A stretch of DNA of 64,000 nucleotides, taken from assembly GCA_030704615.1 (NCBI GenBank), contig CM060732.1, positions 47,740,001 to 47,804,000 of the forward strand, in the 5' to 3' direction. Shown here in pieces: positions 21,442 through 59,206 of this stretch (position 1 is its first letter; each line of letters starts with the position of its first letter). The DNA is from Takakia lepidozioides. Its lineage: Eukaryota; Plantae; Bryophyta. A program made the position numbers and the translations under genes. The notes beneath the pieces were generated by a model. The model saw only the letters and a list, made by a program, of their open reading frames with translations. It was not told the DNA's origin and searched no databases.

Positions 21442-21527
21442 GTGCAAAGCTTTGCAGGTTAATCACACCTGAAAATATTCCTCCACACGAGGGCACCCTA
21501 TATCAGAACAAACCCCTCAATATACGA

Positions 21528-21790: not shown

Positions 21791-22763
21791 CGCTCTGCAC
21801 CGCACTGTGCGAGCTACAGAGAATCCACGACTAGAGAGAAGACGCTGAGAGAGAATACACGCCCCCCGAAGGCCTATATACCCAGTATAGAAAGAGGAAC
21901 CCGAAACAGTAAAAGTATGTTAGGGTAACTTTCCCCGAGAATAGCAAAGGAAGGTTCCTTGACTGGTACGCGGGCTGACCCAGCGGGCAGGAGGGTTCGT
22001 TCCTGCACAACGTGGCTACTGCACCATCACCAGAACCTGCTCACGTAAGCGGAAATGCGTGTGGAATTTGGCAACGCTACAGCTCTTGGCGGAGAGAGAC
22101 AAACGAGGGGTGAACCAACCGTCTGTACATAGGATCCGCTTGACTGCTGTCACTAACCAATTTGATGGTCATAGTATGATTTGACTGTGATGGTCGCCTT
22201 GTAGCATCGTGAAGACTCTGTTCAAAGAGTGTACATGGTTTCCGAATGATTTTCTTGAGCTTTAGTCATCTGAACGCGCACTGGCGTGTTTGAACACCAC
22301 TCAATCATCTTCTCGCCGACCTCAGGAGATTAACCCTCTAATCGGCCTCCAAGATGGAAAGCCAGTTGCACCAGGCAGTTCCCATGTCGGTCGGCCGACG
22401 GTGAACAAGTGGTCAGGAGCTTCCATTGTAGAAGGGTGGGGTCAACATGTCTACATAAGACCGGGATTCATCATCCCTGAGAGCTTTGCCTTAGAGGATT
22501 ATGGAAGTAGATCGATGGCAGCATGTCTGACCACGGCTTCTCTGCTCCCCGTACTAAGAAGAATGCCCAGGGGGCTTTATGCAAACAGTCGCTTGAGCGC
22601 GATTGCAAGGAAAATGATTCGATCATTGGCATGATGTTGGGGTCAAATTGCGGAGGTAGGTAGAAGTTCTGACCGCGGCTGCTTCTTGATTTGAAGTAAT
22701 TTCAACTTGGAGCAAAACCAGCTTCAAAGAACTGATAGGATTCGCCATGTATCTGTATGAGAA

Positions 22764-31760: not shown

Positions 31761-31859
31761 GTCATGTGAAGTCATTATTGGTCAAAAGTGGCTTTTCTTC
31801 TTCATTTTGAGAGACTGAAATCTGAATATGAAAGCCTTGGATGGTGTATAAGTATTTGT

Positions 31860-32010
31860 CAGTAAAGAATGCCAGTAAATGGATCAGGAAATGGACTTTG
31901 GTAACTAGAAATGGACCAGTAAATGGTGCCAGTATTAAATGGATCAGTAAAAGGACTTTGGAACCAAGAAATGGACCAACATATGGACTTTGGTGCCAGT
32001 AATTGGACAT
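31860..32010. repeat. Degenerate minisatellite (~55-60 bp unit)
   Basis: Repeated gccagta..aaatggatcag.aaa.ggactttgg.aac.agaaatggacca. Confidence 0.6.
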
Positions 32011-32199
32011 AGTAACTTGATACATGTAGTCTAAGTATTGTAGTGCAGTTGTCAGTGTGATTTGAGCACATATCATAGACATACACAGCCATTATGAAGC
32101 TGCAGCAAAAGAGGTCAAGATTTGGCACGTTACAGCCTAGATTTCAATTCTTTATTCCTTGGTCACTTTGGGTAGGTGTATCTCTTTGGAAGATATCGT

Positions 32200-33478
32200 G
32201 CCTATTCATTCTTTGGCATTGTCTTAAGTGTATGGGGTGATTAATGGAAGCTGCCCGGTGGATGATAGCTGCAATGAGGTTCCGGTCTAGGTGATGAAGG
32301 AAGGGGAATCGCATGCATTGTTGGGCCATCAGATGCGCCTCAACCTGTCAAACCAGGACAGACTCAAAGCAGTGGTGGCAAGGCTGAGGAAAAGTCTGGC
32401 CTTTTGGAGTGCTGCAATGCTTTCCATCGTGGGGAGGGCGCTTGTAGCTAATCAGGTGCTGGAGGCATCCATGTGGTTCTCTACGGCCGTCTGGGATTCA
32501 GATAAGGCAACAGTGAAGGAGATGAAAGCGCTCATTCGCAATTTTATATGGATACAAAGAGCAATCAAACACAGAAACACACCATGGAGTAAGCTCATTC
32601 AATCATACCTTATGGTATCCATGCCAACCACCTCCCACCTATGGGCCCAATCATTGAGGTGGATAGTGCAAGGTAGAAATGCCACTGTGTCACTAGGATT
32701 TAAGCCCTGGCAATCTATCTGGAAGGCCTGGTGTTGCATGAGAGGCAACCTTACAAGAATGACGCAAAATCGGCAGGAGTACCTGCGTCAACCATTGTTT
32801 GCTAATTACAACATGGATTCTGGAACCTTACTTGCTCAGACTCCGAGATGGGCGTTTTGGGAACAACAGGGCTTCACTCACATTGCAAACATGCGGTCAT
32901 AGGATCCATTTTTCTCTCAGGCTCAGGTGTCTACAATCGTAGGCCAAAAGAGATCCAGAGCTTGGGACACCATTCTTGCCAATGTTCCCTGATATATGAT
33001 TTCACTCTTTGATGAGGGGTCGCTAAACCTCATAGTCCTAGCCTGGATGGCACAGGACAATCAAATCCCACATATATTGGTTTTGACAACACAAGGCTTA
33101 GTGGCATCGGGCCTGGGGTTTGAGGTTGATGAAGAGGGGCAACTGTCATATCTGCAGAGGGTCGAAAAAAATATGACTACCCTGTTTCGTATAAGGGTGC
33201 TGGACCAGCTAGGAAACCCAGATCCGTTGCCCCCACAAGGAATGGAAGATCAATGGTCACGACAAGAGTCTCTGATTTGGTTTCTCCAGTGCCCATTGGC
33301 AGACCTGCAATTTGATCCCGGGGAATGGAGGTGGATGGACAAAAAGAAAACCCCTTTTTTTGCGTACTCGGTGAAAAATGGCTACTCCCTCATCAACCCA
33401 CCTCGTTCTTTCAAAGCCAAATGGTGCTCTAAATGGACCAACCTGCAGCTTGCCCAAGGAACCTGGGAAAAAATCTAG
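32200..33478 (+). mobile_element. L1/Tx1-type LINE ORF2 fragment (region downstream of RT)
   Basis: RLRKSLAFWSAAMLSIVGRALVANQVLEASMWF..LIRNFIW; YLRQPLFAN; FFAYSVKNGY. Confidence 0.75.
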
Positions 33479-33479
33479 A

Positions 33480-34530
33480 GGGACATCATATCGCCCACAC
33501 TCACCCATTCCGGCTAATTCACCCAGTACCAGGACCCCTACCACCAAACCCATACGTAACCTAAAATCCACTCTTACACGTGAAGCCCACAAACAAGCCT
33601 CAGCCTTTACCAGCCATACCAAAAGCCTATATCCAAAAATGGACACAATCCACAGTTCTTCACCACAAATTATCAAACCACTTCTGGCACACAAAGACTG
33701 TCACCGACGCGCAACTCCGACAAACACTCAAATTTCGATACGCCCAATATATGGGACACCAACGCAAACACAACTTCTGGCCTCGTCAATTCCCATCCCC
33801 CAACTGTCCATTATGTTCACACATACATAGAGTACGTGACACCTGGCCCCACCTCCTCAGTCAATGTACTCACCCCGTTATACATGGTCTCCGTGTTACT
33901 TGCCACATCCATAAACTTCTCATGTCCAGATCAGAAACCAGATGGTTCTCACTCATCAATGCTGGTACCTATCAAGGCAGACTCCCTGACTACACAGTCC
34001 CTCACTGACTACTCCCATGTAGTTTTATTCATTCACCCTGTACCTGTCCCTCTCGCCTCTGCCCGAATATCCTACTTGTCCACGGCTTACCCATCAATGC
34101 CCCCCTACCCATTTTCCCCTCCCCGGAGCTAACCATTCACTTCGTTGAATTCACATACTGTCACGATCGATACCCAAACCCCTCCACCTTAGAAAACCGA
34201 CAAAAATATGCCCCACACGACAATCTAAAAATCCCTATCCCCCCGATCCACAAATGCTTTAAAGCCATCCACCTCAATGCGCTCCGCTCCCTCATTGCCA
34301 TCAGCACCAATAAGCGACAACTCGAGTTCAACCCCTCTTCGGCACCCCAGGGTACCCGGGGGTACCCCCGGGTACCATAGGTACCCTCGGTACCACTACC
34401 CTATTTACTACCTCGTCCTGGTTACCCGGTGTCCCCTGGGCACCTGTTCTCTTTATAGGGCCCACCCCCGAAAGGGGGCAATAGCCATAAGGTGAAGTGG
34501 CTCTTATTTACGCGAGCCTTGGCCGGAGTC
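33480..34530 (+). mobile_element. 3' part of a restriction-like-endonuclease (Dualen/RandI-like) non-LTR retrotransposon
   Basis: CCHC knuckle CPLC..DTWPHLLSQC followed by the degenerate RLE signature RL.P(N/D)IL..IHFVEFTYCHD..QKY. Shares a structured 3' end with 45851-46288. Confidence 0.7.
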
Positions 34531-35950
34531 TTCTCTCTCTCTGTAATCCAACATATGGCCTAGAGAGTCGACTACAATGAGAAAGATGAAGGGTGCTAGG
34601 GGACAACCTTGTCTCACCGATCTAGAGATGGGAAAACACTTGGAAATCACTCCGTTCACCATGACTCTACTGCGGAATACAAAAGGATGTGCACCCATGT
34701 GAGAAAAAGGCCCCCCTAGCCCTGTTCTTTGAAGAGCTCCTCAAGAAATGACCAATCGATGGAGTCAAAGGCCTTTTCGAAATCCAACATTAAGAAGGCC
34801 AGTGGTTGGCTGTTGATCTCCGCTCTGTGCAGGGCCTCATGGGCCAACAAAATATTGTCAAGGATCATCATGTCTTTTAGGAAACCAGTTTGCTCCTTCT
34901 TTATGATCTTGGGCAGCAGGGGTTGCAGCCTCAAGGCCAGAGCCTTGGCAATTATCTTGTACGTGGAATTCAATAGTGTGATTGGACGATAATTCTTCAT
35001 GCTTTCCCTGTCACCCTTCTTGAAGATAAGGGTAATGAACCCTTCCGCGACCTGCGATGGCATTAATCTATTTTCCAATATGTCATTTGCCATGGATAAA
35101 AACTCATCTCCTATAGTTTGCCACAAGACTTTGAAGAGCTCCACTGGAAGTCCATTGAGGCCCGGTGATTTTTGGGATGCCATGGAGTTCACCGCTTTGT
35201 CCCAATTCATACACTGAGAAGGGGGCAGCTAAGCTGTTTTTGTCCAGTTGAGAGAGGGAACAGGGGATGCGTTGCAAGAGAGTTGCTTTAGCCTGTTCTT
35301 TCTGTTCACCCGGTTGTTGACATTGAAAGAGCTTCTGGAAATACGTGGCAGCCACCGATGCCATGTTTTTGGGTGTATCCGTCAGCTGACCTGTGGAGTC
35401 CCGTATAGCTGGAACCATTGTTGCTGCCCTTCTTTGTGCAGCCTTGACAAAGAAGTACTTTGCCATCTTTTCCCCTTTGAGAGACCAATTTACTCCAGCC
35501 TTGTTTTTATGAAGTTCTCCTTGGCCTGTAAAAGCCGTGAGAGGTTCCTCTTTGCAGTTTTGTAGGACAACATCGTGTGGGGTCCTTCATGTCCTGACTG
35601 CAGCTGGAATTGGCAGACCTCCGAGCACTTTGTGAGTGCATTTTGTCTCCTAGCATTTCCTCAGTTTTTTTCCTCGAGATGTCTATACAAAGGATCCTTA
35701 ACATAGAGAGCTTTGCCAGGAAACAGGCCGTAGGGGAGACCAATGATGTGGTAGCAGAAGACCATGCCTGTTTCAGAGACTGAACAACGAGAAGGTCCTC
35801 AAGAATGGTTGGGTTCAGTCTGGAAAAACCTCTGCTTCGTACCTTGGACCCTGGGGTAGAAAGCACAATTTGAACCAAGGCATGGTCGAACTCCGGGTGA
35901 ATGGGCAGAAGAGGCACAGTTTTGGACCAGGTCAGAACAGTGTTCACCTG
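34531..35950 (-). mobile_element. L1/Tx1-type LINE ORF2 fragment (APE end and RT N-terminal half)
   Basis: DHALV, KYFF, KSPGLNGLPVELFK, NYRPITLLNSTYKIIAK, LDFEKAFDSIDW, RSVRQGCPLAPFIF; frameshifted. Confidence 0.85.
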
Positions 35951-38202: not shown

Positions 38203-41200
38203 TTAATGAGGAATCTTAAGAGCCAGCTCCAACTGCACCGTCATGACATCCAGCTTCTGCTGCAATGCAGGCAAGTCCCGAAGGAAGCTGTTGATAAGGG
38301 CAGCAAGAGTACTACACTTGCGCTGTGCCTCTTGGACCTCAGCTTCCAGGCTTTGCTTAAGGGTCACACCTTTCCATTTATTGCTGCGCACATCTTCATG
38401 CCGTCTCACCATCCGCTGCTTCATTGCAGTAGCCAACAGCTCTCTAGATTTTGCATTGACTACCTCTCTCAATCTTGACCTACACCAATGCAAACCAAAC
38501 TTCACTTACTGCAGACAGGGGCCTCGTGGTACCATGTTACACCTGACAATTGCCTAGCCGGTTGAAATGTGACCTGCATCTAGCAATTCTTTTACCGACA
38601 CAAATCGCTGCTGCAGGAAAGAGTTGGATGCCCACCCACCTGAGCATCTCTTGCTGTTCAAGAATGGCGGTGATGGATTTGTCTGTGTCAGTGACTCTAG
38701 CTGCCAGGGTTCCCCTTGATTCCTCCAACTCTTTCAAGTGCTGATCAATTGCAACAGAGTTATTATCTGTGTCACGAATGGCCTTTTTCAGATTGGCGCA
38801 TGCCTTCACTAGACCAGCTTCTGCACCAGCGGGTCCATCCACTCCCTTGCGATGGCTCATGGCCTGCACCCCACTAGTACAATTTTCAAGTAACCCCCAC
38901 TGTTTAATCCTTGTCAAGATTTCAATATTCAACAGGAGACTATTATTTTCATTCTGTACAATGGCTGGTGATGCCCTAGATGTACCCCACTTAAATAACA
39001 ATACATACCTGCACCTTGACAGAAATAGCCTTTCGATTGTCCACACGTGATTCCAAACCTGCAATGAGCTTCTTGCGCTGAAGGATCAGTCCATCATGCC
39101 TCAACTGCAAGCGGTCTAACTCTTTCTTCATAGCTGTAATCACAGCCTGACCTACGTTGGGATCTATAGCTGCCTGCATTCCACCAGAACATGAGGAATT
39201 CAACCACAACCCTGCATCCAGCTTCAAATTTTATTCTTAGTTGCAATTAGAGCAACCCTGACAAGGATGAACTGGACCGAAGTCATTCAAAAGTCACGAG
39301 TGGAGACTTCAATGGGGACCACAGAGATAACTGAAATGGCAGGCAACGCACCTGGGTTTGAATTTCAAAAGTAATTTTGTACTTCCAGAGCATGACATGA
39401 TGCTCCAGTTCAGAGACATGGCGCAGTGCATAGTCCCTTTCTTGATGGCGTTCTTCCAATTCCACCTGCATCTGCATAGTGTCCCTTGCCAAGTCCTTGA
39501 GAGCCAAGTAATGGTCAATCTGCAAGTTAGCATTCTCTTTGCTCAGTGCTTCTTCCAGGCTTGCATTCTTGCCTATCAGATCGTTCAACCTGCACCTCCC
39601 ATATATCCTCATTGTTACTGTGTTGCAGGCCAACCGCCTCCCCCAGCTGTCTCAAACCTTCCGAGGCTGTTTATAACAAGATGACAGGAAAGGAGGAGAG
39701 ATATGCCTGCAAACAGTCTTAGCGTAAACTGGCACCTACATATTTGGGGAGTATAGGGGAATAATGATTGGAGAGACAGATTCACCTCTTCTAGAGTTTG
39801 TGTGACAAGGAAGCAGAGCCCAGCAGAGAACAGCTCTGTGCCAGCAAGAAAAGGTCCAAGTAGCCATATCCACCCAAAAGCCCATACAAGCCTTTTTCTC
39901 TACAACAAAGTGCTTGGTTTGACATGCGATCACCTCCAGCCTTTACAGGGTAGGCTGCTGCTTGGATACTATTCTAGGCCACCCCCACCTGGGTGAGGGA
40001 AATGGGTTGCATATAAAAGCCTTACAAATTGTGCACACGTGATTCCAAACCTGTAGTAAGTTGAGAGAAGGGGCAGGGTGGGGGAAGGACAGGAGAAAGA
40101 AAGTTTCATTTGTCCACATACAAGGGATGACAGGCTGCATAATCAGTTGCAACATGCACCTGATGATTAGGCCTTGTTTGACACGTATTCCCATGTTGAA
40201 TTCCTTGATACATCTTGTCAGCATGTTAAACTGCGAATCAACCCGTTGCTTCCGCTGCACTAGCACAACCCTTTCTGCACTCATTCGTTGTGACTTTTCA
40301 GTCAAATTATTATTTTCAGTCATAAGCCCAACAAGGGCAGTTTGCAGCTGCAACCACTGCTTCTGCAGTTCACTAGATGCCTTTAGTTTGAGGTCAATCT
40401 CAGTTTTCAAGCTGTTGATCATGGCTTCCCATGGGGTGGTAGCTTTGTCAGCCAGCCCACTGGTCAGCTTGTCATACTGCTTGTTAAGTCTGTCAATCTC
40501 CTTGGTCTTCATTTCTACCTCCTGATGTCTGCGCTTGATTTCTGTTTGCAGCTTAGAAATGTGCAAAAACTTCTCCTTTACATCATCATCCACTGCCTTC
40601 AATGCGGCAGTTACACTTTGGTTGTAGCTCTTCACTGCCAGCAAGTCGACACGAATGCGTGCAAGGTTGAAGTTAATTTCAGTGGCCATGGTGTCCTCCT
40701 TCTTCACCAGCTGTCGCAGCTCCATGGTGCTCGCCACTGTGGCTTGGGCTGATTTCTTCTCCAATGTTATCTGCTCCAGCAAGCCTTGCAGAATTTTGTT
40801 TTCTAACTCTTGGATCTTTCGAGTCTCCTTCAAAAACGCTTGGTTGATGATCTGCACATAAATCACCATCTTTCTGTGTTCAGTTTGTTTGAGGCACAAC
40901 TTTGGATTTAACTTATAGCCAACATTAACGACTGTTAAGATCCCTTGATACAACGGAAGGTTTCCTATCCTTAGGTCTTCAAATCACCAGAGAACCTGGC
41001 ATCACTGATAGCCTTCCGATCAAGTTATTGTATTCTTGGAAGAGGACAGTGAAAGAAGAAATGCTCTAGTTCACTTTTGATTTCCCTGTTGTTTCGGCAC
41101 AGGCAGTCCACATGTTGCAGGTTGTCCTACTAGTCGTGGGAACCCATTCTCAACCTCCTCAATGCCCTTAGAAGAAATGAAAAATGAATGAAATGGTGCT

Positions 41201-44200
41201 TTATAGCGTCCCCGGAAAGCTAATAGAGCCTATGGGACAAAATGGAAGAAAACATGAGAGAGGAAGATTCTATCGTCATGGAGAACCAAGAAATGTCTCC
41301 CAATAGAACTGCAGTTTTGTTGTAAGAATGGCTGGTTTCCATGTTCGCTTTATGTGTTCCATAAGTTCTTGTCTGATGCATCTGTTGCGGCCCTGCTTGA
41401 ACAAAATTTCCACTCTCTCTGTATTTTGTGGCTGTAGGGAAGCAACGCAAAGTCTGTGGCACTCAAAAAAGCTGAAGACCTGAGCATACCAGGAGGTCTT
41501 GAAACCATTGTCCTTGAGTCTGATAGAGGTTGTAAGGGCTTATGTGAGGGTTTATGTGCGGAATGTGCTGATGGCTGTTGTACCTCATAGCCCCAAGCAA
41601 GAAGAAAGTAACTTTACAATGCCCACAGGAGGGCCCATGGGACAGGGTGGATAAAAAAATGACCATTTCAGGATACATCAAATGACCCTAAGACAAAGGG
41701 CCTCCAGTAGGTAGGTTCCAAGGTCCAAAATAGGAGAGAGAGAGCCAGTGTGGCAACTCTTGTAGCACCATGCACATCCTTACGGATTAGAAATGAAATG
41801 AAATGAAATGGAATGGTACTTTAGATCGACTGCAGAAAGCTCAAAGAGGTTATGGGACAAGAAACAAGAAAGAGAGGCCCTCCACAAGCAGGAATGTGCT
41901 GATGGCTGTTGTACCTCATAGCCCCAAGCAAGAAGAAAGTAACTTTACAATGCCCACAGGAGGGCCCATGGGACAGGGTGGATAAAAAAATGACCATTTC
42001 AGGATACATCAAATGACCCTAAGACAAAGGGCCTCCAGTAGGTAGGTTCCAAGGTCCAAAATAGGAGAGAGAGAGCCAGTGTGGCAACTCTTGTAGCACC
42101 ATGCACATCCTTACGGATTAGAAATGAAATGAAATGAAATGGAATGGTACTTTAGATCGACTGCAGAAAGCTCAAAGAGGTTATGGGACAAGAAACAAGA
42201 AAGAGAGGCCCTCCACAAGCAGCCCAAAAGCAACAACTGCTCAAGGGACTGTCTAAGAGTCCATGCCTCATGCAGGTAAGGTGCCAACATTTCTGATCCT
42301 TGTAGTGAAAAGACCTCGTGAGAGATTGGGTATCACGGAATGATAATTGAATCTCCCACAGATCTCATAGTAGAAAGGTCAGTGAAAGAAGAAATGTTCA
42401 TCACTTTTGATTTCCCTGTTGTTCCCAGCGCAAGCAGGGCATATGGCAGGTTGAGAGAAAGGTTGGTGGAGAATAAGTACCTTGGTTTGAAATTCCAGAG
42501 CTACAAGTTCAGCCTTCACTTTCTCTGTGTTGGATTCAACCTCTTCAACCTGCACCAAAATTTTAGCAAATTGCTCAAGCATCTTCATGCGTGTTTTGAT
42601 GGTGCGCTGAATACGTTTCTGGACTTCCTTCATTGCTGAATCAATCTTCATCAGAGTGATTCCCTGCCGCTCAGCTTTCTCTTGCTCCACGGCAATGACC
42701 TTCCTGTATGAATCCTTCTCTCCTTCTACTGCTATTTTTTGCTCTTTTTGGCTTGCAATTGCATCAATTAGAGCCTGTCCCACACAAATATGATGGGAAT
42801 ATTCAGTAAGCACATACATGTGGGGAACTCCACATTACCTTCAGCAATGCTCGTCAACTTCACCGACAACAAATTCTTGTCCTCTCCACACAGTTGCCAG
42901 GTTAAGCAATGAAAGCACGCGCAGGCTCAAAGAGACATCAAAGAGATTTGTACTGATTTTTCAGCAAAAAGGAGAGACCAACCAAAGGTTGATAGAGGGG
43001 ACATGAAGAAGTGTGTGACGACTGACCAACCTGGAGAGCTTCATCACAGCGGCCCAGAACGATAAGGGATGACTTCCATTGAAAAGTCACTTGTTTTTTC
43101 TCTGCATTTATGGTCTCCATCTCTATTCCAGCTTCAGCCAGTGCCACATGGGCCACCTTTGTCTCTCTTTCCTGGGCTGATGTTCAGAGCCAAATCAATT
43201 CCCTCCCTCAGGACATGTCACTTGTTTGTTCATGTATCCTCCCATGTCCTCTCAGTCATCTATAGCAGTAGACAAGTGATTCCCGGCATCAACATGCAGA
43301 TGGTGGCCTTTGCCAAGTAAGCACCCCCTCACTCTAGTTTCTTCTTTAATGCTAGGCAATTTCTCAAATCCTTTACTTGTGAAAGTCAAATTCCCACACG
43401 CCTCTGTCATCTACTTGGGCTGAAAGACAAGGCCATGCTGCTCCGAAAGCTGTATATGCTTGATGTTGCTTATGCTTGCTGACAACACACCCTACTTTGA
43501 AAGCTAATCAAGTCAATCCAATTCAAATACCCTCAATATCCAACTACAAAGGTATACGAAGAAATTATTAAATTTGATTTGCACTGGTATTAAGTTCATT
43601 TCTTTGTTACTTTAATATCTAGAGACAAGGGGAAGAGGATGCACCTGCAAGTTGAGCTTTACAGAGGGCCTGCTTTTCATAAAGATGTTTGATGCGTTGT
43701 TGCAGTAAATCAATGAGATAATCCTGCTCCTTCTTTTCTTTCTCAGCCCTCACCACGGCCTCTTCACCAGCGTAAGTGGCCCGCCTACTCATAGCAATCT
43801 CACCCTTGATCTTCTCGTTAAAGCCCTCAACTTGCTTTAATGTGTTTGACAAATTGTCCAGTTCCAGACGTGCGCCCTCCATTTTTTCTTTCAAGGTTTT
43901 CCTCTCCGTACTTCTCCCTGTGTGTATTGTCTGCTGATGGTCCAAATCTTCCTGGGCCTGCGACCTAATGCCGTCATTGTAAACAGCATGTTCCACCAAC
44001 CATAAGCTGTTTTGAACGGGAATGAAGATTTTCAATTCCTTTTCCAGGCATTCAATCAGCCACAGTAGCTCATCATTTCCGTGCTTTTGGGTCACCAAGA
44101 GGACCAGTTCTCATGTAACCATGTGAGTGAAGTCAACGTGATGCAACCCACAGTTGTGGCTATCTTCTAATTGCACAATCAGGCCAACCGGCATATTTGC

Positions 44201-44882
44201 ATAGTATCTAATGCGAACAGTCGAGGGCTCCTAGAAAATGTGACATCGAAGAGATGGCACTAAGTGGAAAGAGATGATCGACACAATGAATAATTTCCAG
44301 TGGTGTGAAATGATCCCAGTGTCATTCCAGTTCTCTCAAGGAAGGAACAAAAAACTCTAAACACAAGAGACAATAAAACTGACACAGTGATGGACTTTGT
44401 ACTGGAGACCTTAGCATGCTGCTCAGCAGCAGTTTGGAGGTCACTGGTGGCCTTGTGCAGGGACAGGTGCAAGCTGGCAAGGTTGCATTGAAGGTCATAC
44501 AGCTGCACGCCCGATTCCTCTCTATCCTTCGTCGCTTTTTTCAGATTTACGTTTTGCTCATACAACCTCTCATCCAACTCCTGCTTCTTGTCCAACAATT
44601 GCTTCTTGAGCTTAGCCTGCACTTTTTCCAATACAGCAGCATCGCGGGGGCTTTGGCTGGAGGGTGCCTTTCTTTCCGCCATCTCCTCCGTTGACGAATC
44701 CTCCTCTTCTCTATTCGCCTCTTCAAGAAAACTGGCTCGCTCCCGCTGGCGATCCTCCGACTGCTTCCTCCGCTCTTCCAACTGCTGACTGCTGGCATTG
44801 TGCACCCCAGCCCGTTCACCATCGCTCAATCCGGGTGAACTGGGCTGCAACCCCACCCGTTCCTCCGTCTCATCTGTCATGG
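38203..44882 (-). CDS. CCDC40: Coiled-coil domain-containing protein 40 (axonemal ruler, FAP172 homolog), multi-exon
   Basis: Diagnostic segments REESGVQLYDLQCNLA, KGEIAMSRRATYAGEEAVVRAEKEKKEQDYLIDLLQ, NAEKKQVTFQWKSSL, ELQKQWLQLQTALV, ELEHHVMLWKYKI and DPNVGQAVITAMKKELDRLQLR. Approximate exons: 44882-44409, 43960-43645, 43170-43030, 42775-42480, 40855-40160, 39590-39352, 39175-39010, 38865-38640, 38478-38203. Confidence 0.85.
41030..42440 (-). mobile_element. Several short RTEX-like LINE 3'-end fragments (also one at ~8587-8625)
   Basis: (GAAAT)n tails plus ggtgctttat...tatgggacaa at 41177 and 41789/42120, and EHFFFHC-type zinc-finger remnants like those at ~22940. Confidence 0.65.
41560..42221. 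repeat. Apparently identical 331-bp tandem duplication (41560-41890 / 41891-42221) in a CCDC40 intron
   Basis: The two units look identical by eye. Each includes a LINE 3' end with a (CATTT)n tail on the - strand. Confidence 0.9.
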
Positions 44883-45850
44883 TGAAGAAGTTCACACTCA
44901 ACCAACACTATCAGAGCCGCCCATTGCCATCACTGTGAAGAACAAAACTGAGGGTCACGACCTTTCTAGTCATCTCTACCTCGCAGGACTTGAATGGAAA
45001 CTCGGAATGATCTTGAGAACAATCTACATGCTCACATCACACCCACACACAACCGAGAGATTAGATAACGCAAACCCAATGTGTTCCAACAACAGTGACC
45101 CATGCTGGGACTTGTCCATGTCCATGCTGCCTTAGATCGTAAAAGCTTGAGCGAGGCAGAAGAAGGAGCGTGTGCAACATCTCCAACTACCCACCCTCAG
45201 GATGGACCCTCACTCCAATCATCAGTGCCACGGTCTGTTGAAAGTTGGTTGCTGTTTTCAGTTGCTTGGGTTAAGTTAACTTAGCTCAAGTTTAGTACAA
45301 GAGTCTGTTGACAGAGGAAGAGGACTTTGGGTTAGGGCTCAACTCTTCACATGCCATGCCATGCATAAAGTGACTCTTTCTTTAAAAAAAAATTAAGTGA
45401 CTCTCTTAATGTTTTTCCCTTTAGTCCACTGCTGCTTGTCTTGTTAGTTGCTTGGGCCTTGATAGTTCTCCAGCTTACCCTTGTCCTTTAGCTGGCTGCA
45501 GATCCTTGCTGCAGCTGTTCTAGCTTCTCTTCAGGTTAGTCTTCTTGTTTTCAGCAGCGCTATGGCTCTGATGTGCTTCTTCTTACTTAGTCTCTTTTCT
45601 TACCCCTTGATTTTTTGGCTATGAGTGGAACCTCGTTACTCCGCCTTCATGGCTCTATGTAAGGTTATTTTTTGCTTAGCTTTTAATAAAGTTTTCAGGG
45701 CTACAATTCCCCTGTTCTCTTAAGGAAAAAAAAAAAAAAAAAAAAGGGACGTTCACCATTCGTGCATGTCGCTATTTATGCGACAAGGACTTTTGGTACC
45801 TTAGGATCGTCGGCACTGTTCATCAGGGCTGAGAATATGATATGAACCAA

Positions 45851-47298: not shown

Positions 47299-47383
47299 TG
47301 TCGTGCACCTAAGCATCGTGCCACAACATACATCGTTGTCCACCATACATTCTAAGCACACAATCCTAGAAAGCTATGCCACA
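47299..47383. repeat. 85-bp LTR segment A (outer copy); second copy at 47756-47840 abuts the PPT
   Basis: tgtcgtgcacc...ctatgccaca; 3 mismatches between the copies. Confidence 0.9.
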
Positions 47384-47385
47384 AT

Positions 47386-47753
47386 AGATAATGGAAGTGA
47401 ACACACAATGGAAACACTCCACTCATGAATCTACTCAATCACATAAACTAAGTCAAGCCAAGGGCACCTTTGCTAAAGGAATCCACCCTACAAAGCCCTC
47501 ACCACACTCCCTCTCAATACCTAGAACTATGGAGGTGGGAGAGGCTCATGGAGGCTCAACTACAAGAAGATGAGCCCTCCTCAACACTCACAAGGGGAAA
47601 ACCCATCCCCATGTCCCAAGTGAGGTTTGACACCTCACTTGGCATGTGAGACCAAATGAAGTCCCAACACACAAAATACAAATATAAATATCCAAAATGT
47701 CCTAGTTAACTAGAAGTAGGTAATTCTAGTTAACCATGACTAAAACCATGACA
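47386..47753. repeat. LTR segment B, 3' copy
   Basis: Near-identical (about ten differences by eye) to 58843-59206. Contains an 11-bp-stem hairpin ccaagtgaggt-ttgac-acctcacttgg. Confidence 0.9.
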
Positions 47754-48030
47754 GTTGTCGTGCACCTAAGCATCGTGCCACAACATACATCACTGTCCAC
47801 CATACATTGTAAGCACACAATCCTAGAAAGCTATGCCACAATCGCCCCCCTAGCTGGTGATTAGGTCCCTCTAACACCGGATAGCTGCCAAGTATCCATC
47901 TCAATAAAATCATCGCTTGGTCTTCAATCGCACATGATCTTCAATTAAGTATCCATGGCGTTGAGCTCCCATCAGCTAGACCTTGGATCACTTGTCAATT
48001 CCACCATTGTCATGCCCACTACCTATGTCC

Positions 48031-48170
48031 AAAGCATCATGGACACAACCATTCTCCACTAGGAACCTCCTCAAGTGGCGGTGTCAAGCATCCCATGTGC
48101 CACCCCCTTGAGCATTTGTCACACACCAACATGGTCGTGGCACCACCAGCATGCCCACATAGCATGCAAC
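48031..48170 (-). pseudogene. PHD finger (Cys4-His-Cys3) at the integrase C-terminus
   Basis: CMLCGHAGGATTMLVCDKCSRGWHMGCLTPPLEEVPSGEWLCP*C; the TGA likely arose from CGA. Confidence 0.88.
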
Positions 48171-48249
48171 GCAACCCTGCAAGTACCACTGCAAGATTGG
48201 GATCTATCCTCCCATCCACATGTGGAAGGTGACATGGCGCACAATTGCG

Positions 48250-49400
48250 CACATGTCATGTCATCTCGACCCTCCAAAATCAACACTCTTGAAGGCAACA
48301 CCTCCCGGACCCTTAGAATCACACGCCCTGTTGTGACATCCAAAGTCGTAGGCGCTGTCTGCTGCAGATACACATAGCCCCCAGGGTGGAAACGCCGAAC
48401 ACCTGGCCGATATCCCCCTCCACGTATAGTGACGTATCTCAATGTGTCTCGGTGTTGGGCAATAGCAAGGTTCTCAAAAGCCATAGGCATGACTCTCTTG
48501 AACAACTCTACCCGCTGGGCACATGCTTGTGTCCACACATCCAGATCATCAAGGTTGAGAACTACTGCAGTCTCCCTGCGAATAGATGCAGGCAAATCTG
48601 GCTCTCGGCTAAAGAAGGCAAGAACGAGGCAAGTGATGCTTGTTTGCTAAACCTGTAGCCCATAGCCAACCAAGGTAGCTGAAGGTCCCAATCTCCTAAG
48701 TATCCCTTCTGCAAGCCATACTTGCGTAAGCCTCGCTTGACTGTTTGTACAACCCTCTCTGCCAGGCCATCAGCCTCGGGATGATCCCGAGAAGTAGTGC
48801 ATTGATCTATCAAGGCTTGCTCACACAAAGCCTGAAACTCCCCCAAGAACTCTCTCCCCTGGTCCGTGAGTACCTTGGCTGGAGCACCAAATTGGCTAAG
48901 CACTCGATCTAAGAATGCATACGCAGCCCCCTCACTTGCCTTGTCAAGCAATGCCACCAGTTCGATCCACTTGGAAAAATATTCCACCATCACCAGCACA
49001 TACTTGTTAAGGGCGAATCGTTAGTGGCAATGGGCATGCGAAGTCAAGACTCCAACGATAGCCCAAACCCATAATGGGTAAAAGATGCAATTGTGGAGTA
49101 GGTGCATTGAAAGAAGCTCGCACTCTATCACACACCATGCACTTTGCCACTAACTGTTGCTCATCCATGTGCATGCCCCGCCACCAGTACTGTTCTTGCA
49201 GCAAACTATGAGTGCACCGCACCCCAAAATGTCCCAACTCCTCATGGGCATGGCGTACCAATCGCACTCGTTGTGTTGGATGAGGCACAATCCTCAATCG
49301 TCCATCCTCCCATACTCGGAGTAGGTGAATCCCCTCCCACTTGAACCTCTTGGCTCGTCGTAAGATCCGATCTCTCTCCTTAGCAGTCACACTGACTGCT
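48250..49400 (-). pseudogene. Integrase copy 2 (HHCC + DDE core + C-terminal region)
   Basis: HEELGHFG..WWRGM..CMVC; WSLDFA; VLTDQGREF; HPEADGLAERVVQTVK; frameshifted. Confidence 0.9.
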
Positions 49401-49636: not shown

Positions 49637-51000
49637 TCAATCCATCTGCATCCCGATTGACAATACCGGCTTGATGCACCACCTGAAAGTCGTATTCTTG
49701 AAGCATAAGTGCCCACCGTGCTTCCCTGTAAGCTTGTCTGACTCCATCAACCACTTCAATGATTGGTGATCCATGACAAGGGTGAAGAGATTGCCATAGA
49801 GATAGCATCTGAAATGTGCCACTGCCCATACCGCAGCTAGACACTCCCCTTCATAGGAACTATACTTCGCCTCGGCATCATTGTTTGAGCGGCTAGCATA
49901 TGCCACTACGAACTCTCTTCCCTCATCATCCATCTGTGTGAGCACTGCTCCAATCCCCAACATACTCCAATCCGTATGTAGCTGGAAAGGCCGCCCCCGA
50001 ATAGGCCGCCTCAGATGAGGTGCAGAAGTCAATCGAGCCTTGAGTTCCTCAAAGGCTTCATCCTGCTCCTCCTCCCACTGCCACTCCTGACCCACCTTGG
50101 TTAACTTAGTAACAGCCTTTGCAATGCTGCTAAATCCCTTGACAAACCGTCGATAGTAGTTTGTCAACCCCATGAAAGCACGAACTCTGCTAACATCTAT
50201 GGGACGTGGAATGCGTGCAATGGCCTCCACCTTCGTCTTTTGAACACCCAATCCTCCAGGGTATATCATGTGGCCCAGATACTCAATCTGGTTGTGGAAG
50301 AACTTGCACTTCCCAGGGTGCAATTTCAACCCATGCGCTCTCAGGCACTCAAACACCACCTGAAGGTGTTTCTCATGCTCCTCAACCGTAGCACTAAAGA
50401 CGATGATGTCATCAATGTAACACCGGGCAAAGTCTAGCCCCGCGAGAATCCTATCCATAACCCTCTGAAACTCTGCAGGAGCATTCTTCAACCCAAACGG
50501 TAGGAAGCGCCATTGGTACAAGCAATCCTTCCCATGTTGGTCAATCCCCCAGAATGCCGTCTTTTGCTTGTCAGCCTCTTTGATTGGCAACTGGTGGTAA
50601 CCGGATCGCAAGTCCAATGTACTAAACACCTTTGCATGCCTAATGGCATCAAAGATTTCCTCTGGAGTTGGCATGGCATATCTATCGGACTTAGTCTAAC
50701 GGTTCACAGGATGATAGTCCCCACACATCCTTCTTTCTGTCCAATTGCCATAGATATCCTTCTTAGCTGGCATCACCGTTGCTGAGGCATACTCCCCGCC
50801 TGACAACTCCACCAATCCAGCTTCGAACAACTCCATAGTCTGTGACTGGATCAATGACCTCTTTATGTCACTATACCGGTAGGGCCTTCGAAAGATTGGC
50901 GTGTCACTTGCCAAATCAATACGATCTCCTGACCCTTCAAACTCCCCAAATCCTTCAAACAGAAGGCAAAGCAATTTCTATAAGCCCTTAGAAATCGCTG
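49637..51000 (-). pseudogene. Reverse transcriptase and RNase H
   Basis: RMCGDY.PVN, FSTLDLRSGYHQ, LPFGLKNAPAEFQ, CYIDDII, YLGH; RNase H LHTDWS..GAVLTQ..YASRS..YEGECLA..DHQSLKW. Confidence 0.95.
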
Positions 51001-51379
51001 GATCCTCCGTCTCTCTCCTCCGGTGACTGTAGGTCCAATATCAGGTTCCCAATTGTCCTCAGTGACTGCAACCTTGGGTACATCAGGCTTGGGGGTAGGA
51101 GACGAATCCTTTGGTTGCTAGATAGCAACCTCTTGGGCCTTGTCCGCCCAATCTGACTGTGGCGTAGCCTCCACTTGCTCTGCCATAACCACCTTGAGAA
51201 CATCCTCTGGGGAAGAAACATTCTCAACCTCTTCAAAAACATTGGCCACCTTGGCCTCCAACTGATCCTCAGTGTATGGCTCTCCCCACTCCTCATATTT
51301 CTGCTTGAGAGATCCAAAGACTCTCTCTTTCCGCATCTCATCCCACATCGTCCATGGGTGTTTGCACCCCATGGTAGAC

Positions 51380-52620
51380 CCACAGAGCATGCACCTCAAA
51401 CCTGTAGGTACCACTGCCAAGTTTGGGTCAACTTTGCCATCGACATTGGAAAGGTGACATGGCGCACAATTACGCACATGGTCCTTCCAAGTCATGCCAT
51501 CCCAACCCTCCAAGATCAGGACCCCTGAGGGCAACACTTCTCGAACCCTCATAATAACACGCCCTGCAGTAACATCCAGAGTCGTAGGAGCAGTCTGCTG
51601 CAAATAAACATAGTCACCAGGGCTAAACCTCCGAACCCCAAGACGATATCCTCCACCACGTATAGTGGCATACCTCAACGTATCACGGTGTTGTGCAATG
51701 GCAAGGTTCTCAAAAGCCATGGGCACGACTTTCTTAAACAACTCTGCATGCTGATCACATGCACGTATCCACACGTCCGGATCGTCAAGGTTAAGGACTT
51801 GAGCAGTGTCCCTACGAATGGCTGCAGGCAAATCCGGCTCTCAGCCAAAGAGAAGGAAATATGGTGAGAAGGAGGAAAGTGATGCTTGTTTGCTGAACCT
51901 GTAGCCCATGGCTAACCAAGGAACCTGAAGATCCCAATCTCCTAGGTGTCCCTTCTGCAAGCCATACTTGCGCAAACCCCTCTTCACCGTCTGAACAACT
52001 CTCTCTGCTAGGCCATCGGCCTCAGGATGATCCCGAGAAGTGGTGCGGTGGTCTATCAAGGCTTTATCACACAAAGCCTGAAACTCCCCCAAGAACTCTC
52101 TCCCTTGGTCCGTGAGTACCTCAGCTGGAGCACCAAATCGGCTAAGCACACAATCCAAGAATGCATACGCAGCCCCCTCACTAGCCTTGTCAGGCAATGG
52201 AACCAACTCAATCCACTTGGAGAAGTGCTCCACCATCACCAACACATATCTGTGGTGGCGCATAGTCAGTGGCAACGGTCCTGCGAAGTCAAGACTCCAC
52301 CTATAGCCCAATCCCATGATTGGTAAAGGATGCAACTGTGGTATAGGGGCGTTGAATGAAGCACACACCCTGTCACACACCATGCACCTAGCCACGAACT
52401 GTTGCACCTCTGTATGCATACCACGCCACCAATACTGCCCCTGCAGTAATCTGTGAGTGCGTCGCACTCCAAAATGCCCCAACTCCTCATGGGCATGCCG
52501 CACTAACCGTGCACGCTGTGTGGGGTGAGGCACAATCCTCACCCGACCATCCTCCCATACTCGAAGTAGGTGTATCCCCTCCCACTTGAACCTCTTGGCT
52601 CGTTGCAGGATCCGATCCCA
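51380..52620 (-). pseudogene. Integrase copy 1 (extra, upstream of RT), truncated at the start of its PHD
   Basis: DRILQRAKRF..HEELGHFG..CMVC..WSLDFAGP..LTDQGREF..GLAERVV..; ends at LRCMLCG. Paralogous to, but visibly diverged from, 48250-49400. Confidence 0.9.
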
Positions 52621-52621
52621 G

Positions 52622-53480
52622 AGCTGGCACAGCTGTAGTGCCCGTGGCAAATCCCATTGCCCGCTCTCGCTCATCTGCATTGGGCTCCACCAATTGCTGT
52701 AGCACACTGTCCCAAATCAACCCAGGACCATTGTCTCGAAAAGCATGAGACGAGGGAAAGCTCATGAGCGTAGGCAAGGCCGCATGTGGCTGCCCCACTC
52801 AATTTACCACTGCTAGAGGTGGACGATCATCATGTTGCACCCTCTGTGGTTACCTCCCTTGGTCCAAAATGCCCTCAACTGTGAGATTGGGTGGCTGTTG
52901 AATGGAATCGTATGCTCTCTTGAGCAGCTCTGGTGGTGCAAGATTGGTCCACCACAATCGAGGTCGATGCGCTCGTGATCCCACCGCTGCTGCATCCAAT
53001 AACACCACCGATCCAATCCAAGACCGCACCTGATGTTCACTGGCCATAACCCTGGCCCGAGAGTCCCCCATAAGAGGAACATTCTCCAAGATATAGGCTA
53101 GAGGTTGCACTTGCCTCGTCTGCAAGTCACGCAACACTCTCAACATCTCCCAAAACAAATGCGATCGTGCATCATGCAAGCCGTTCCCATGACCTGCGGG
53201 AGAGTGTCCTTGGCAAGGCTATCCAGCTATCACCAAGTCAATGGCACCATGCCGGTCCAAATCATCCGCCCTCGGCAAGGTAATGTCTGATGGCAAGGCC
53301 TTTTGATACCCTTGAATTGTTGAGAGAGACAACAACTCAGGGTACCGGTGTGTGAGCAAGGCGATGTGGCGCATAGAAATACGCTCCACATACAAGTACT
53401 TGCGTACTTTAATCCCAGCTTGCAACACTCCTGCAAGCCCAGTACTCATGCCTCCAAACAGGTCTAGCAAACAAATCCCT
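52622..53480 (-). pseudogene. DNMT3-like C5-cytosine DNA methyltransferase domain inside the retroelement polyprotein
   Basis: Motif I LLDLFGGMSTG; motif IV IDLVIAG*PCQG (TGG>TAG before the catalytic PC); motif VI YILENV; motif VIII SRAHRPRLWWTN; motif IX ERERAMGFATGTT. All lie in one frame continuous with the protease ORF. Motif X is lost at the 52620 junction. Confidence 0.88.
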
Positions 53481-53849
53481 GAGTTAGGTGGTTGCCAGAT
53501 AATGGGCACTGTATCCAAAGGAGCTAACTGAGGAAGTCCAGGTGATGTCACTAAACTCCCCTCACTCACCAATGGATATGCCTCCTGCCATGCTTGGTGC
53601 ACACACTCGCCTGCTACTCGATGCAAATTCCTAACTGTACCCCACAGTGGAATATGAACAGACACATGAGGAAGCAAATCAGCCTTGTATGCCAATTGTT
53701 TGTCCTCATCAGGTGGTGGCCTATCATCTGCATGACTATTGCCCTCCAAGAGCTCACCACCCCAAGCCACCACCCCTGAGAATGCAGCCAATGTGGGCAT
53801 CATGTTCCTATGATCCACCGCTACATTCCCAATAAACCGCACTGGGAGC

Positions 53850-54300
53850 AGTGCACGTCGACCATCCCCTGACTGCCATTCCGGCCTGTAGGATGTTGTT
53901 TCCTCCCAAAAGTCCAAAGTAAAGCCCATCGGGTATAACACAACCCCACCAACAAGCACATCATAAGACATCGCGTCCGTAACAATGGTTTTAGCTCTCA
54001 TGACAGAGCCATCTGTAGGATGATCTGGCTGCAATCGAATGAAGAGCTCATGGTGGGTAATCCCTCGTGTTTTCTCTAAACCACCCAAATATGTTTGAAT
54101 TTGGAAAGGACAAGGCTCCAAATTCGCCTCTGTAAGGCCCAAGCCTGCAATTGCTGCTCTCCCCAACATCAATGGATGTGCTCTCGAGTCCAACAAGACC
54201 CGCAGTGGCCTATATCTCCTCCCGGCTGGGCCACCCAACTGAAACACACCATCCTGATTGTCCACCAGGACTACCCCAGGAGTCACCATACTACGTTCAA
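53850..54300 (-). pseudogene. Retropepsin-like aspartic protease
   Basis: RVLLDSRAHPLMLG (DSG with G>R) ... SYDVLVGGVVL. Confidence 0.7.
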
Positions 54301-55006
54301 TGACTGGTTTAGCTGGCAACTCCTGCAACCTTGCAGCTGCCGCTTGCCATGGCGCAGCTGTGGCTGTTTTCACCCTTGAATCCAAGGCATCCATGCACTG
54401 CATCTGATCCGCTATCCCCGCAGATAGTGCCCATGCATCACCACTCTCACAGAGTCTAGCTGCCATTCTAAACACTGCAGCTGGCCGCATCCCCGACATT
54501 GCAATTGTCGTGGCAGAAAACAATGGAGCTTGGCAAATTGTCGTAGCCGCCCCCAACAATGTACTGGCTGCACCTTGCTTTGCAGCACCACCCAGTGGCA
54601 TTTCCCGAGCCACGTCAACTCTCCCCAATGACACTCGTGGCTCTACTTCTGATACACTTGGGCGAGCGGGAGCCATCGATGGCATAGTTGGCACTGTCTC
54701 AGCCAATGTGAAAGACTGTGGAACCCTTGTTTGTCGACTTGCTTCCCCTCTTTGTGGATCAAAATCCATATCCGCTCCTCTTGGCTCAGGAGCACGCGTT
54801 GCTGCTCGAGTGACAGCAGCTACAGAGTCCACATGCAATGGTCCTGCAAGTGTGGCTCCACACATGAAGCCCATACCAATCTGGTCTTCCCTAGGCATAT
54901 GAGGTTGTGCAGGTGGGGCTTGAACCTCAAGCCTTGGAGCTGGCACAATATGAGTAGTGACCATGGCAGCAAGACGTTGCTCTAGCTGGGCAAGTCTATC
55001 CACCAT

Positions 55007-56384
55007 GCCTTGGTCATGATCTTGACCCTGACCCTGTGCTCCTTGGTTTTGGTTACGTCCTCCACCACGACCTCTGCCTCCTCTACCTCTCTGGAATTGC
55101 CTCGCCCTCGGCCACCATTGTTCCCTTAGAACTGGCCTGGCCGTAGCTCAGGATGCAAGTCATAACAATGGGCCTCCTCATGCCCATACTTGCCACAATG
55201 CCCACACTGTAGTTGTGTAGGCTGTGCCTGTGCCGGCCCTTTGCCTCTCTCCGGGCAATCTCTCTTAACATGGGGTCCTCCAAAATCCCAACATGTCACA
55301 CCCGACTGTTGTTGGCCTGAGAATAAAGGAAGTGACCTCTGAAATTGAGATCCTCTCTGTCCTTCCCTGGGCTTCGCCTGCGCCCCCTTGTTGCCTTGAG
55401 CACGTTGGGGTAGTGGTTGTTGTTGGCTAGGAGCCCCACTTCATTGTGTCTCCTTACCAAATTCCACCATGACCACTCGCTCCTCCACCATATTGAGCTC
55501 TATCCGTTCTGCCAACAAAAACACGTTTGCTAATGTGGGTTGGTCCACTTGTAGGAGAGTTGCATCCCACACCCTTCTCCTCAGCTCCTTGTCCAATATC
55601 CCATACAGAATTGGATTGCTTGAGCTTCCGTAACCCCTTGCGTTACATTTATCAATCGCCTCATGTGAGTGTAAGCCTCCCTCAAACTCTCGGCAGGCTT
55701 TCGTTGGAACTCTTGCAAACTCCGCAATTTCTCCGTCCTTATCCCCTGGTAGCTTCTCCTTAACTCCTCGAAGAACTCCACAACTGGGTTAAAGGCAGGC
55801 ACGGGTGTTGGTGCTGCAGCAGGAGCTTGGGTGGACTTCCCAGCTCCTGTTCCACTTAACGTCCCACTGCTGCTTGCAGAAGCTGCCGGTGTAGCTACCG
55901 GTGTCACCACTGCCCTTGTGCCTCTAGTGATGGAGACATAATCAGGTGACCAATACACCCGCCATTCCTCAATCTCTACCTCATGTCCCCGCCTAACCTC
56001 ATGGTAGTCATCCATGGGCGGCCCCTCAAGGTGCTGAAACAACCCCTTCCACGCCATAAAGGGCGTAAACAGTTGTGGATTGCGCATTTGCTGCAAATCA
56101 CACCAACTGTCAAACTCTTGTATGAAGTCATCAAGCTCGATGGTACCCACAGCTCCAGAGTACCTACGTGGCCCCTTGGTAGCTCCATACATTTCCTCCA
56201 TCGTATCCCACAACAATGGCACGGAAATGGCTTGCACCCTCGGTGAGAATCCTCCTAACTCTGAGTTTGAACCTTCCTCAGAAGACACTGAAGGTGAAGG
56301 TGGCCTAAACCGCACATCTCGTCTTGTATACCCACTAGTATCGCTGGTGCTCGTACCGGCACTCTCCTCAGCAACTGGTGGCAC
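55007..56384 (-). pseudogene. Gag with two zinc knuckles
   Basis: LDDFIQEFDSWC..FQRKPAESLREAY (capsid-like). After a frameshift: CWDFGGPHVKRDC, CGHCGKYGHEEAHC and an RG-rich tract leading into the protease ORF. Confidence 0.85.
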
Positions 56385-56799
56385 CTCCGTGATGAAAACT
56401 CACAACCATACCTGTTGTAAACTTGTCTCTATAGCCCCTTTCCACAAGGTAACCGGGTAGAGAACCTGTTGCAGCTTATGGCTTAGACTATTAGGTTTGT
56501 AACATAAACCTGCACCTGCATCCACTGCAAGCACTCATATGGTCTGCTGGTCATCAATCCAGCCTCACCATAAGAGAAACAATGATGGTCTGACTGGTCA
56601 TCACCCCAGCCTCACCACCGACAGCATGCTCTAGAATTGGCCGGTGATCAAATCCGGACCAACCTCCTATGAAAACAAGCGCACACACAAAACTGACATG
56701 GCGCACAGTCAAACATGCAGGTGTGGGGGGGATCCAAATACAAGAAAATCAAGACAGTAATTCCCCCACACAAAAAAAAACACTCCACAGTGTCGCTCT

Positions 56800-58830: not shown

Positions 58831-58843
58831 ATCTTCTTGTAGT
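58831..58843 (-). promoter_or_regulatory. Self-priming-type primer binding site
   Basis: At the 3' edge of the 5' LTR, (A)CTACAAGAAGAT is exactly complementary to LTR-internal 59016-59028. There is no TGG tRNA-type PBS. Confidence 0.7.
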
Positions 58844-59206
58844 GATAATGGAAGTGAACACACAATGGAAACACTCCACTCATGAATCCACTCAATCACA
58901 TAAACTAAGTCAAGTCAAGGGCACTTTTGCTATAAGAATCCACCCTACAAAGCCCTCACCACACTCCCTCTCAATACCTAGAGCTATGGAGGTGGGAGAG
59001 GCTCATGGAGGCTCAACTACAAGAAGATGAGCCCTCCTCAACACTCACAAGAGAAAACCCATCCCCATGTCCCAAGTGAGGTTTGACACCTCACTTGGCA
59101 TGTGAGACCAAATGAAGTCCCAACACACAAAATACAAATATAAATATCCAAAATGTCCTAGTTAACTAGTAGGTAATTCTAGTTAACCATGACTAAAACC
59201 ATGACA
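58843..59206. repeat. LTR segment B, 5' copy
   Basis: TG...CA termini; matches 47386-47753. Confidence 0.9.

Follow-up and report, generated by a model that had tools for sequence, protein, structure and literature searches.

The window analysed here, 64,000 nucleotides of Takakia lepidozioides contig CM060732.1 (assembly GCA_030704615.1, positions 47,740,001 to 47,804,000 of the forward strand), carries a retrotransposon that sits between a host multi-exon coiled-coil gene (38537-44907, minus strand; no Pfam name), reminiscent of flagellar CCDC40, and the 3' exon of a cytochrome P450 gene (62373-62693, minus strand). A further host gene, encoding an A20/AN1 zinc-finger protein, lies at 20935-21462 (minus strand), and decayed LINE-like elements occupy 22623-26933 (minus strand) and 30509-35586, with RVT_1 matches at 23828-24466 and 34716-35228 and a weak endonuclease match at 25083-25886. 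The coiled-coil gene region contains an exact 331-bp tandem duplication (41560-42222, 100% identity), which is either recent or an assembly artefact.

The retrotransposon extends on the minus strand from 59206 to 47299 and consists, in its own reading direction, of a repeat A, a leader of 2.4 kb, gag, protease, cytosine methyltransferase (MTase), reverse transcriptase (RT), RNase H, an integrase ending in a PHD finger, a polypurine tract and a 3' end of the form B-A-B (Table 1). The domain order PR-RT-RH-INT, the DDE integrase, the polypurine tract and the target duplication are those of a Ty3/Gypsy element; two complete LTRs around the coding region were not found, the repeats being split as A...B-A-B or A...B. 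No tyrosine recombinase was matched among 14 ORFs scanned, and an rve integrase is present instead. The protease of the window copy gave no Pfam match, and that of a Klebsormidium relative gave a weak Asp_protease_2 match below the cut-off. The sequence TCCTTACA in the 5' leader (~56800) was considered as a nested solo LTR and rejected; it has no target duplication that matches.

Table 1. Features of the retrotransposon in window coordinates, listed in the reading direction of the element.
Feature	Position	Strand	Evidence or remark
Repeat A1, element start TGTCATG	58844..59206	-	97% to A2 over 367 columns
13-nt segment in A that can pair with the site immediately following A1; predicted self-primer close to the RNA 5' end	59016..59028	-	
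Predicted self-priming primer-binding site, without the TGG start of a tRNA site	58831..58843	-	
Gag, two zinc-knuckle-like motifs, frameshifted	55126..56399	-	Retrotrans_gag E 0.0019 (below cut-off); 43-64% to Marchantia ORF1 N-termini
Aspartic protease region; motif altered at 54196-54179	53850..54310	-	39-55% identity to Marchantia relatives
DNMT3-like C5 cytosine methyltransferase with motifs I-IX but no longer X; three stops from decay	52622..53480	-	PF00145 match
Motif I, LDLFGG	53467-53450	-	sequence
Motif IV, G*PCQG (stop within)	53224-53207	-	sequence
Motif VI, ENV	53086-53078	-	sequence
Motif VIII, RPRLWWTN	52966-52943	-	sequence
Motif IX, ERAMGF	52666-52649	-	sequence
Inserted integrase fragment, from sister subfamily, in place of motif X	51379..52617	-	82% to 49372-48154; H2C2 and rve matches
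C-terminal tail of Gag-PR-MTase frame, HPW motif	51121..51363	-	HPW..W at relatives' ORF1 ends; aligns to L040, L047
Conserved in-frame stop and CARYYA context (TAG CAA CCA), predicted readthrough site; stop codon 51120-51118	51112..51120	-	
Reverse transcriptase (YIDD 50419-50408) and RNase H	49763..50977	-	RVT_1 E 5.7e-32, RT_RNaseH_2 E 5.7e-33
Element's own integrase (H2C2, rve), PHD finger at end, frameshifted	48031..49372	-	PHD E 1.2e-11
Polypurine tract, adjoining B1	47843..47855	-	same motif immediately before B in 12 further records
Repeat B1, end GCACGACA	47756..47842	-	96.5% to B2
Internal B/A junction CACGACA-NN-TGTCATG, predicted integrase cleavage site	47746..47763	-	same form in L005, L021, L040, L054, L061, L064
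Repeat A2	47387..47753	-	97% to A1
Repeat B2, element end CACGACA; 4-bp flanks CTTG/CTCG, one base different	47299..47385	-	

The original prediction held that a Ty3/Gypsy retrotransposon at this place carries its own DNMT3-like cytosine methyltransferase within its polyprotein. The C5-MTase motifs I, IV, VI, VIII and IX were found in order on the minus strand, intronless and in one frame with the protease, as described there. With X placed at the three stops, the proposed PF00145 search returned E 1.6e-13 and 51.2 bits (cut-off 22), and ESM Atlas confirmed the same family. The best PDB match of the domain as a single sequence was DNMT3A (E 2.4e-11); profile comparison with solved structures gave DNMT3A at 7e-21, DRM at 5e-10 and M.HaeIII at 6e-7, the top solved matches being DNMT3A and DNMT3B, and the predicted fold of an intact relative (pLDDT 88.9) was likewise closest to DNMT3A (TM 0.64/0.82). 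Phage MTases were about equally distant (28-31% identity; 65-86 bits pairwise). With DNMT3A nearest by sequence, profile and predicted fold and with the motif order unrearranged, the DNMT3-like character was upheld, and the domain is, judged by these comparisons, a genuine DNMT3-like domain.

The copy is dead, as had been proposed from three in-frame stops in the MTase, and carries further lesions, including several frameshifts, a 6-residue gap after MTase motif II and a protease motif that reads DSR instead of the DSG of relatives. Motif X, which intact relatives retain, is indeed gone, but it was replaced rather than simply deleted: together with about 65 codons it gave way to a 1.24-kb piece of integrase (82% identity to that of the element itself) that follows the MTase directly, and the C-terminal tail of the MTase resumes beyond it, near 51363. 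The position claimed for the MTase, between protease and RT, is correct as to order; in the window copy the integrase fragment stands next to the MTase, so the RT lies about 1.9 kb further on. The edges of the fragment are loose ends in sibling contigs, which continue at both into sequence that looks, by eye, like the usual neighbours of integrase, and the motif IV stop is absent from these contigs, so neither the insert nor that stop is typical of the family. Summed contig depth over the integrase-fragment region (51400-52600) was ~10x that over the MTase; summed depth does not equal copy number, and the excess suggests many related integrase-bearing copies in which the MTase is absent or <80% alike. 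Between the repeat copies in the window, A differs by 7 substitutions and 2 indels and B by 3 substitutions.

The family was traced among metagenome loci (73; L numbers), protein records (P numbers) and sibling copies, the latter being short contigs of public runs, of which the main run may be the source of the window itself and is not independent. Relatives at 54-68% identity were found in Marchantia polymorpha, M. paleacea, Calypogeia fissa and three Sphagnum species, and at 32-38% in Closterium and Klebsormidium, the same domain order being present in the Marchantia, Calypogeia, Sphagnum, Closterium and Klebsormidium relatives. The nearest named relatives being liverworts and peat mosses, the assumption of a seed-free land plant as host fits. 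The siblings that were to be looked for are abundant, 21,157 contigs of one public run matching a 3-kb stretch of the element; a run that may be RNA yielded 7 partial contigs, which are no evidence on expression. A scan of viral contigs found no relative.

An MTase profile search at E<=1e-30 yielded 653 clusters (50% identity), the best 150 of which comprised 96 with the order RT-RH-MTase-INT, 11 with the order of the window and 43 that were uninformative. Quick trees, with SH-aLRT support only, were built for the MTase (65 rows, including 28 chlorophyte-type rows sampled from a dereplicated 170, with phage MTases as outgroup only and without host DNMT3) and for the RT (66 rows; several intended outgroup rows were lost to a length filter, and the outgroup is not one clade). 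The sister type, with the MTase between RNase H and integrase, forms one clade (support 99 in the MTase tree, 100 in the RT tree); it has the order RT-RH-MTase-INT-PHD and includes P0052, P0053, P0073, P0301 and others, its sole named member being the chlorophyte Scenedesmus sp. PABB004. In both trees the window groups with L019, Calypogeia, Marchantia and a Sphagnum-like family. The K. nitens RT, the window and both architectures fall in one RT clade (SH-aLRT 97, in a quick tree with an imperfect outgroup). A single acquisition of the MTase, followed by a move within the polyprotein, would be the simplest reading of these quick trees. The same order across lineages and the congruent MTase and RT trees bear out the MTase as an integral, long-conserved part of a Ty3/Gypsy family. 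The Gypsy Pol P0515, a neighbour with a PHD finger of its own, carries PF05869, a Dam adenine methyltransferase family. This parallels the DAM-LTRs described in the accessible text of bioRxiv 10.64898/2026.05.21.726589.

Long-term constraint acts on the catalytic motifs. Of 112 full-length domains (redundant members included), 107 have the catalytic Cys and 111 the EN pair, and even sequences that share no more than 32-42% identity retain the SAM-binding motif, the catalytic Cys, the Glu and Arg-x-Arg. MTase dN/dS was 0.10-0.28 between lineages, where dS is saturated, and 0.124 at dS 0.26 for the unsaturated pair L040/L041. The comparison of copies that had been proposed thus gave a divided answer: constraint was evident between lineages, but not equal constraint within the large decayed Sphagnum-like family, where median dN/dS was 0.61 for the MTase, 0.71 for the protease and 0.36 for the RT, with transitions near neutral; these within-family values are dominated by decay after insertion, and a shared-transversion filter left too few sites. 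Between lineages, then, a profile match, a domain spread over many copies and constrained dN/dS were found in place of the three outcomes named beforehand as contrary (no profile match, a one-off capture, or neutral dN/dS with unconserved PC/ENV residues).

As predicted, the MTase shares a frame with the protease. This Gag-protease-MTase frame closes with a conserved stop at 51120-51118, and the RT-bearing frame does not include the MTase. In 42 of 45 linker-covering records (39 distinct loci after collapse), drawn from the metagenome loci and the window, an in-frame stop precedes a fixed anchor by 47-54 codons, and the remaining three have unrelated sequence at that place. The window stop reads TAG CAA CCA and matches CARYYA; the exact match occurs in 7 records (the window and 6 others) from three divergent groups whose surrounding sequence is unrelated, and at none of 408 decay stops. 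In 27 records, all of the Sphagnum-like family, the context is CAACCC, one base off CARYYA. In L040, open frames of 1369 and 1047 codons are parted solely by the conserved stop, and protein databases hold many separate ORF1 (Gag-PR-MTase) and ORF2 (RT-RH-INT-PHD) products. Several algal or other relatives, including P0439 of the same RT clade, have no stop. RNA folding past the stop revealed, by eye, no structure shared by six lineages. L019 and L041 also have stops between protease and MTase; these were rejected as a conserved signal and assigned to decay, being at differing places and outside a CARYYA context. Some Marchantia gene models (P0009, P0012, P0015, P0016) fuse the MTase to the RT with the tail partly or wholly missing, and their predicted introns probably skip the conserved stop.

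Tobacco mosaic virus uses CARYYA as its readthrough signal, and the motif directs readthrough in plants, at 6-10% in stable Arabidopsis lines, according to the accessible text of the papers concerned (PMC2194720, PMC4132726, PMC2754532). Because an in-frame stop with this context separates the MTase from the RT, the MTase is likely made at the Gag rather than the Pol level; protease and MTase would likely be Gag-level products, and RT and integrase would arise by the predicted readthrough.

The ends of the element are of the integrase type (TG…CA), the element starting with TGTCATG and ending with CACGACA. The arrangement A-coding-B-A-B is complete in the window and L064, B-A-B 3' ends were found in L054 and L061, and the internal junction CACGACA-NN-TGTCA(T/C)G, with single-base variants, is present in seven records. 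Among the five records with both ends, three have an exact 4-bp target duplication, the window has one with a single mismatch, and L025 has none. Single-B endings (A-coding-B where both ends are visible) were observed in L009, L010, L013, L021, L024/L025, L051 and L057, two of them with exact 4-bp target duplications, and may stem from one-LTR circles or from B-by-B recombination. A second, divergent element, at L021:14718-17324, has B...B repeats of its own and shares the CA-NN-TG junction.

No tRNA-type primer site was evident after A. Instead, the 13 nt after A1 pair with a segment inside A, which suggests self-priming; in a random control, 16 of 3000 random 20-mers of the window reached at least 13, their lengths (18, 20) pointing to self-matches between repeat copies. 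Only 7 of the 16 records showed self-complementarity of at least 10 nt; in the Sphagnum-like family such pairing is maintained by a different sequence.

The split ends, which like the conserved stop and the integrase insert had no place in the original prediction, suggest an unusual mode of insertion. B plus A would act as one LTR during reverse transcription, which the RNA 5' end would itself prime through the complementary segment in A. The integrase would then cut the internal CA-NN-TG junction with a 2-bp stagger instead of the LTR tips. The tips, whose joining would either follow this cut or precede it through a circle, would be left inside the insertion. A symmetric two-LTR circle should also yield A-B-A-coding-B, and the absence of this form (B before A at 0 of 14 upstream ends, 13 distinct) counts against the proposed model.

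We lean, with modest confidence, toward reading the window element as a dead and rearranged member of an ancient Ty3/Gypsy lineage of green plants that has a Gag-protease-MTase frame and a stop that is likely leaky, and whose capsid-level MTase would likely methylate cDNA before integration. Low-rate readthrough of the conserved stop would supply RT, RNase H and the PHD-tipped integrase, large amounts of the MTase would enter the particle in which the element's DNA is synthesised, and new cDNA would be methylated there before it integrates. The least certain step is cDNA as the MTase's target, by which a new copy would be pre-marked as silent, host-like DNA; the self-silencing, camouflage and independence from host pathways suggested originally are likewise hypothetical. 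Methylation in the particle is favoured because the catalytic residues are conserved, because both MTase positions (before the RT, or between RNase H and integrase) lie inside the particle polyprotein, and because the related SymbioDIRS domains showed de novo CG methylation in yeast (PMC5890265, accessible text). Against the reading weigh the inactivity of the KnitGypsy domain in yeast, a CpG depletion like that of the flanks, the weaker constraint on the MTase in the decayed family, the CAACCC contexts, the relatives that have no stop, the missing target duplication of L025 and the small share of records with self-complementarity. A far-reaching version makes cDNA methylation, at the conserved CpG of the CACGACA end among other sites, a step of the transposition cycle that pre-silences the copy, sets the choice of junction and explains the A-first insertions, thereby uniting MTase at capsid stoichiometry, a built-in palindromic junction cut inside one LTR and a lineage spread across green plants; we consider it quite unlikely.

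That an active MTase modifies the host's target site or resident copies after nuclear entry, guided by the PHD finger of the integrase, would suit the PHD finger at the integrase end in both architectures and the adjacency of MTase and integrase in the chlorophyte-type order. It would also suit base composition, since the CpG deficit of the element is no greater than that of its flanks (observed/expected 0.45-0.50 against 0.39-0.43 in the window, 0.27-0.78 in relatives); CHG depletion likewise gave no element-specific signal in the window. In the window's subclade, however, the stop parts the MTase from the integrase and would produce a large excess of MTase beyond the need at a target site, and we judge this alternative rather unlikely. 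Gag-level expression would also fit an MTase retained chiefly to bind nucleic acid or to serve as a structural component of Gag (in packaging, chaperoning or protection of cDNA ends), with catalysis secondary or fading. The apparently weaker constraint on the MTase than on the RT in the Sphagnum-like family points the same way, as does the inactivity in yeast of the KnitGypsy domain of Klebsormidium, an assay that its authors call inconclusive (PMC5890265, accessible text). Such a role is distinctly improbable in view of the SAM-binding motif, catalytic Cys, Glu and Arg-x-Arg kept at such low overall identity.

The readthrough itself has a competitor in an ORF2 expressed from its own start, by reinitiation or from a subgenomic or spliced RNA, the stop then being the true end of ORF1. 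Reinitiation is possible in the Sphagnum-like family because an ATG lies two codons after CAA CCC, the transcriptome record P0421 holds ORF2 as a complete protein, and Tca2 is described as having a junction promoter (PMC2194720, accessible text). Yet the window, L019, L040, L041 and L072 have no ATG within four codons past the stop and keep both frame and CARYYA amid unrelated neighbouring sequence, which makes an independent start very improbable. Capture of a host DNMT3 fragment by the window copy as a single event could draw on the fact that host DNMT3 was not placed in the MTase tree, but it is contradicted by the hundreds of clusters, the congruent trees and the thousands of sibling contigs in one run, and its probability is close to nil.

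The Gypsy-DNMT3 kind is already published: KnitGypsy-Dnmt3 of Klebsormidium nitens (de Mendoza et al. 2018, PMC5890265) shares the Gypsy domains, an intronless, unrearranged DNMT3-like domain and A-coding-B-A-B repeats, and bioRxiv 10.64898/2026.05.21.726589 names 'streptophytes (Gypsy-DNMT3)' as known, both as given in their accessible text. The kinship with the Klebsormidium element that had been suggested was confirmed, the K. nitens Gag-PR-MTase protein GAQ93235 (36% identical) and an RT model with a neighbouring locus tag falling in the window's lineage. Purifying selection (Ka/Ks < 0.2) was reported for KnitGypsy-Dnmt3, against which stand the values given above for the window's lineage (low between lineages and for L040/L041, higher in the decayed family). 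The window's lineage differs in its land-plant host and far larger number of copies. The accessible text of PMC5890265 places the MTase in the Pol ORF, whereas here a stop parts it from the RT in the same frame; because of this stop, the window element is classed apart from the KnitGypsy-Dnmt3 family, within its lineage. The same text made no mention, where accessible, of readthrough, self-priming, the junction, target duplications or a PHD finger for KnitGypsy-Dnmt3.

Other known systems share single features, as far as their descriptions were accessible. The A-coding-B-A-B layout is typical of recombinase elements (PMC4157794); SymbioDIRS-Dnmt3 and PAT/Ngaro/TOC (PMC5890265, PMC4157794) have split direct repeats and, in some members, a polyprotein MTase, but use a tyrosine recombinase and no integrase, in contrast to the DDE integrase, polypurine tract and 4-bp target duplications here. 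The self-priming LTR elements Tf1/Sushi, Tcn1 and TAR (PMC6317226) likewise have no tRNA-type site and a complementary segment within the 5' repeat; the window element has a PHD finger instead of a chromodomain, split ends and an MTase, the comparison being one of features. An in-frame stop, CARYYA context and an abundant versus a rare product recall TMV-type UAG-CARYYA, SIRE1, Tca2 and MuLV (PMC2194720, PMC4132726, PMC2754532), the stop here following protease and MTase rather than lying directly after gag or after pol. Plant host DNMT3 (Yaari et al. 2019, PMC6453930) shares the DNMT3-type fold and bears a C-terminal DUF3444, which Pfam did not find on the proteins of the element's relatives. 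EpiLTRs (bioRxiv 10.64898/2026.05.21.726589) are also DNMT-bearing LTR elements, with DNMTs reported as sister to DNMT4 and with DAM and chromodomains. In the literature covered, which was incomplete, no account was found of land-plant or chlorophyte members of this lineage, nor of a conserved stop or readthrough, self-priming or an internal junction in it; the conserved CARYYA stop after the MTase, the integrase-type split ends with a 2-bp-spaced junction and the self-priming site apparently go beyond the published accounts found.

The ends point to a DDE integrase that acts at an internal junction, an arrangement associated otherwise with recombinase elements. Standard LTR finders would likely miss elements with split ends, and their gene models could be mistaken for host DNMTs. 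The predicted readthrough, if true, sets the amount and location of the MTase. The role of a retrotransposon-borne cytosine methyltransferase has been a question since 2018, in part owing to hosts that were difficult to study. Because Marchantia polymorpha has annotated full-length Gag-protease-MTase frames and is a genetic model, the role of the MTase is testable in a land plant.
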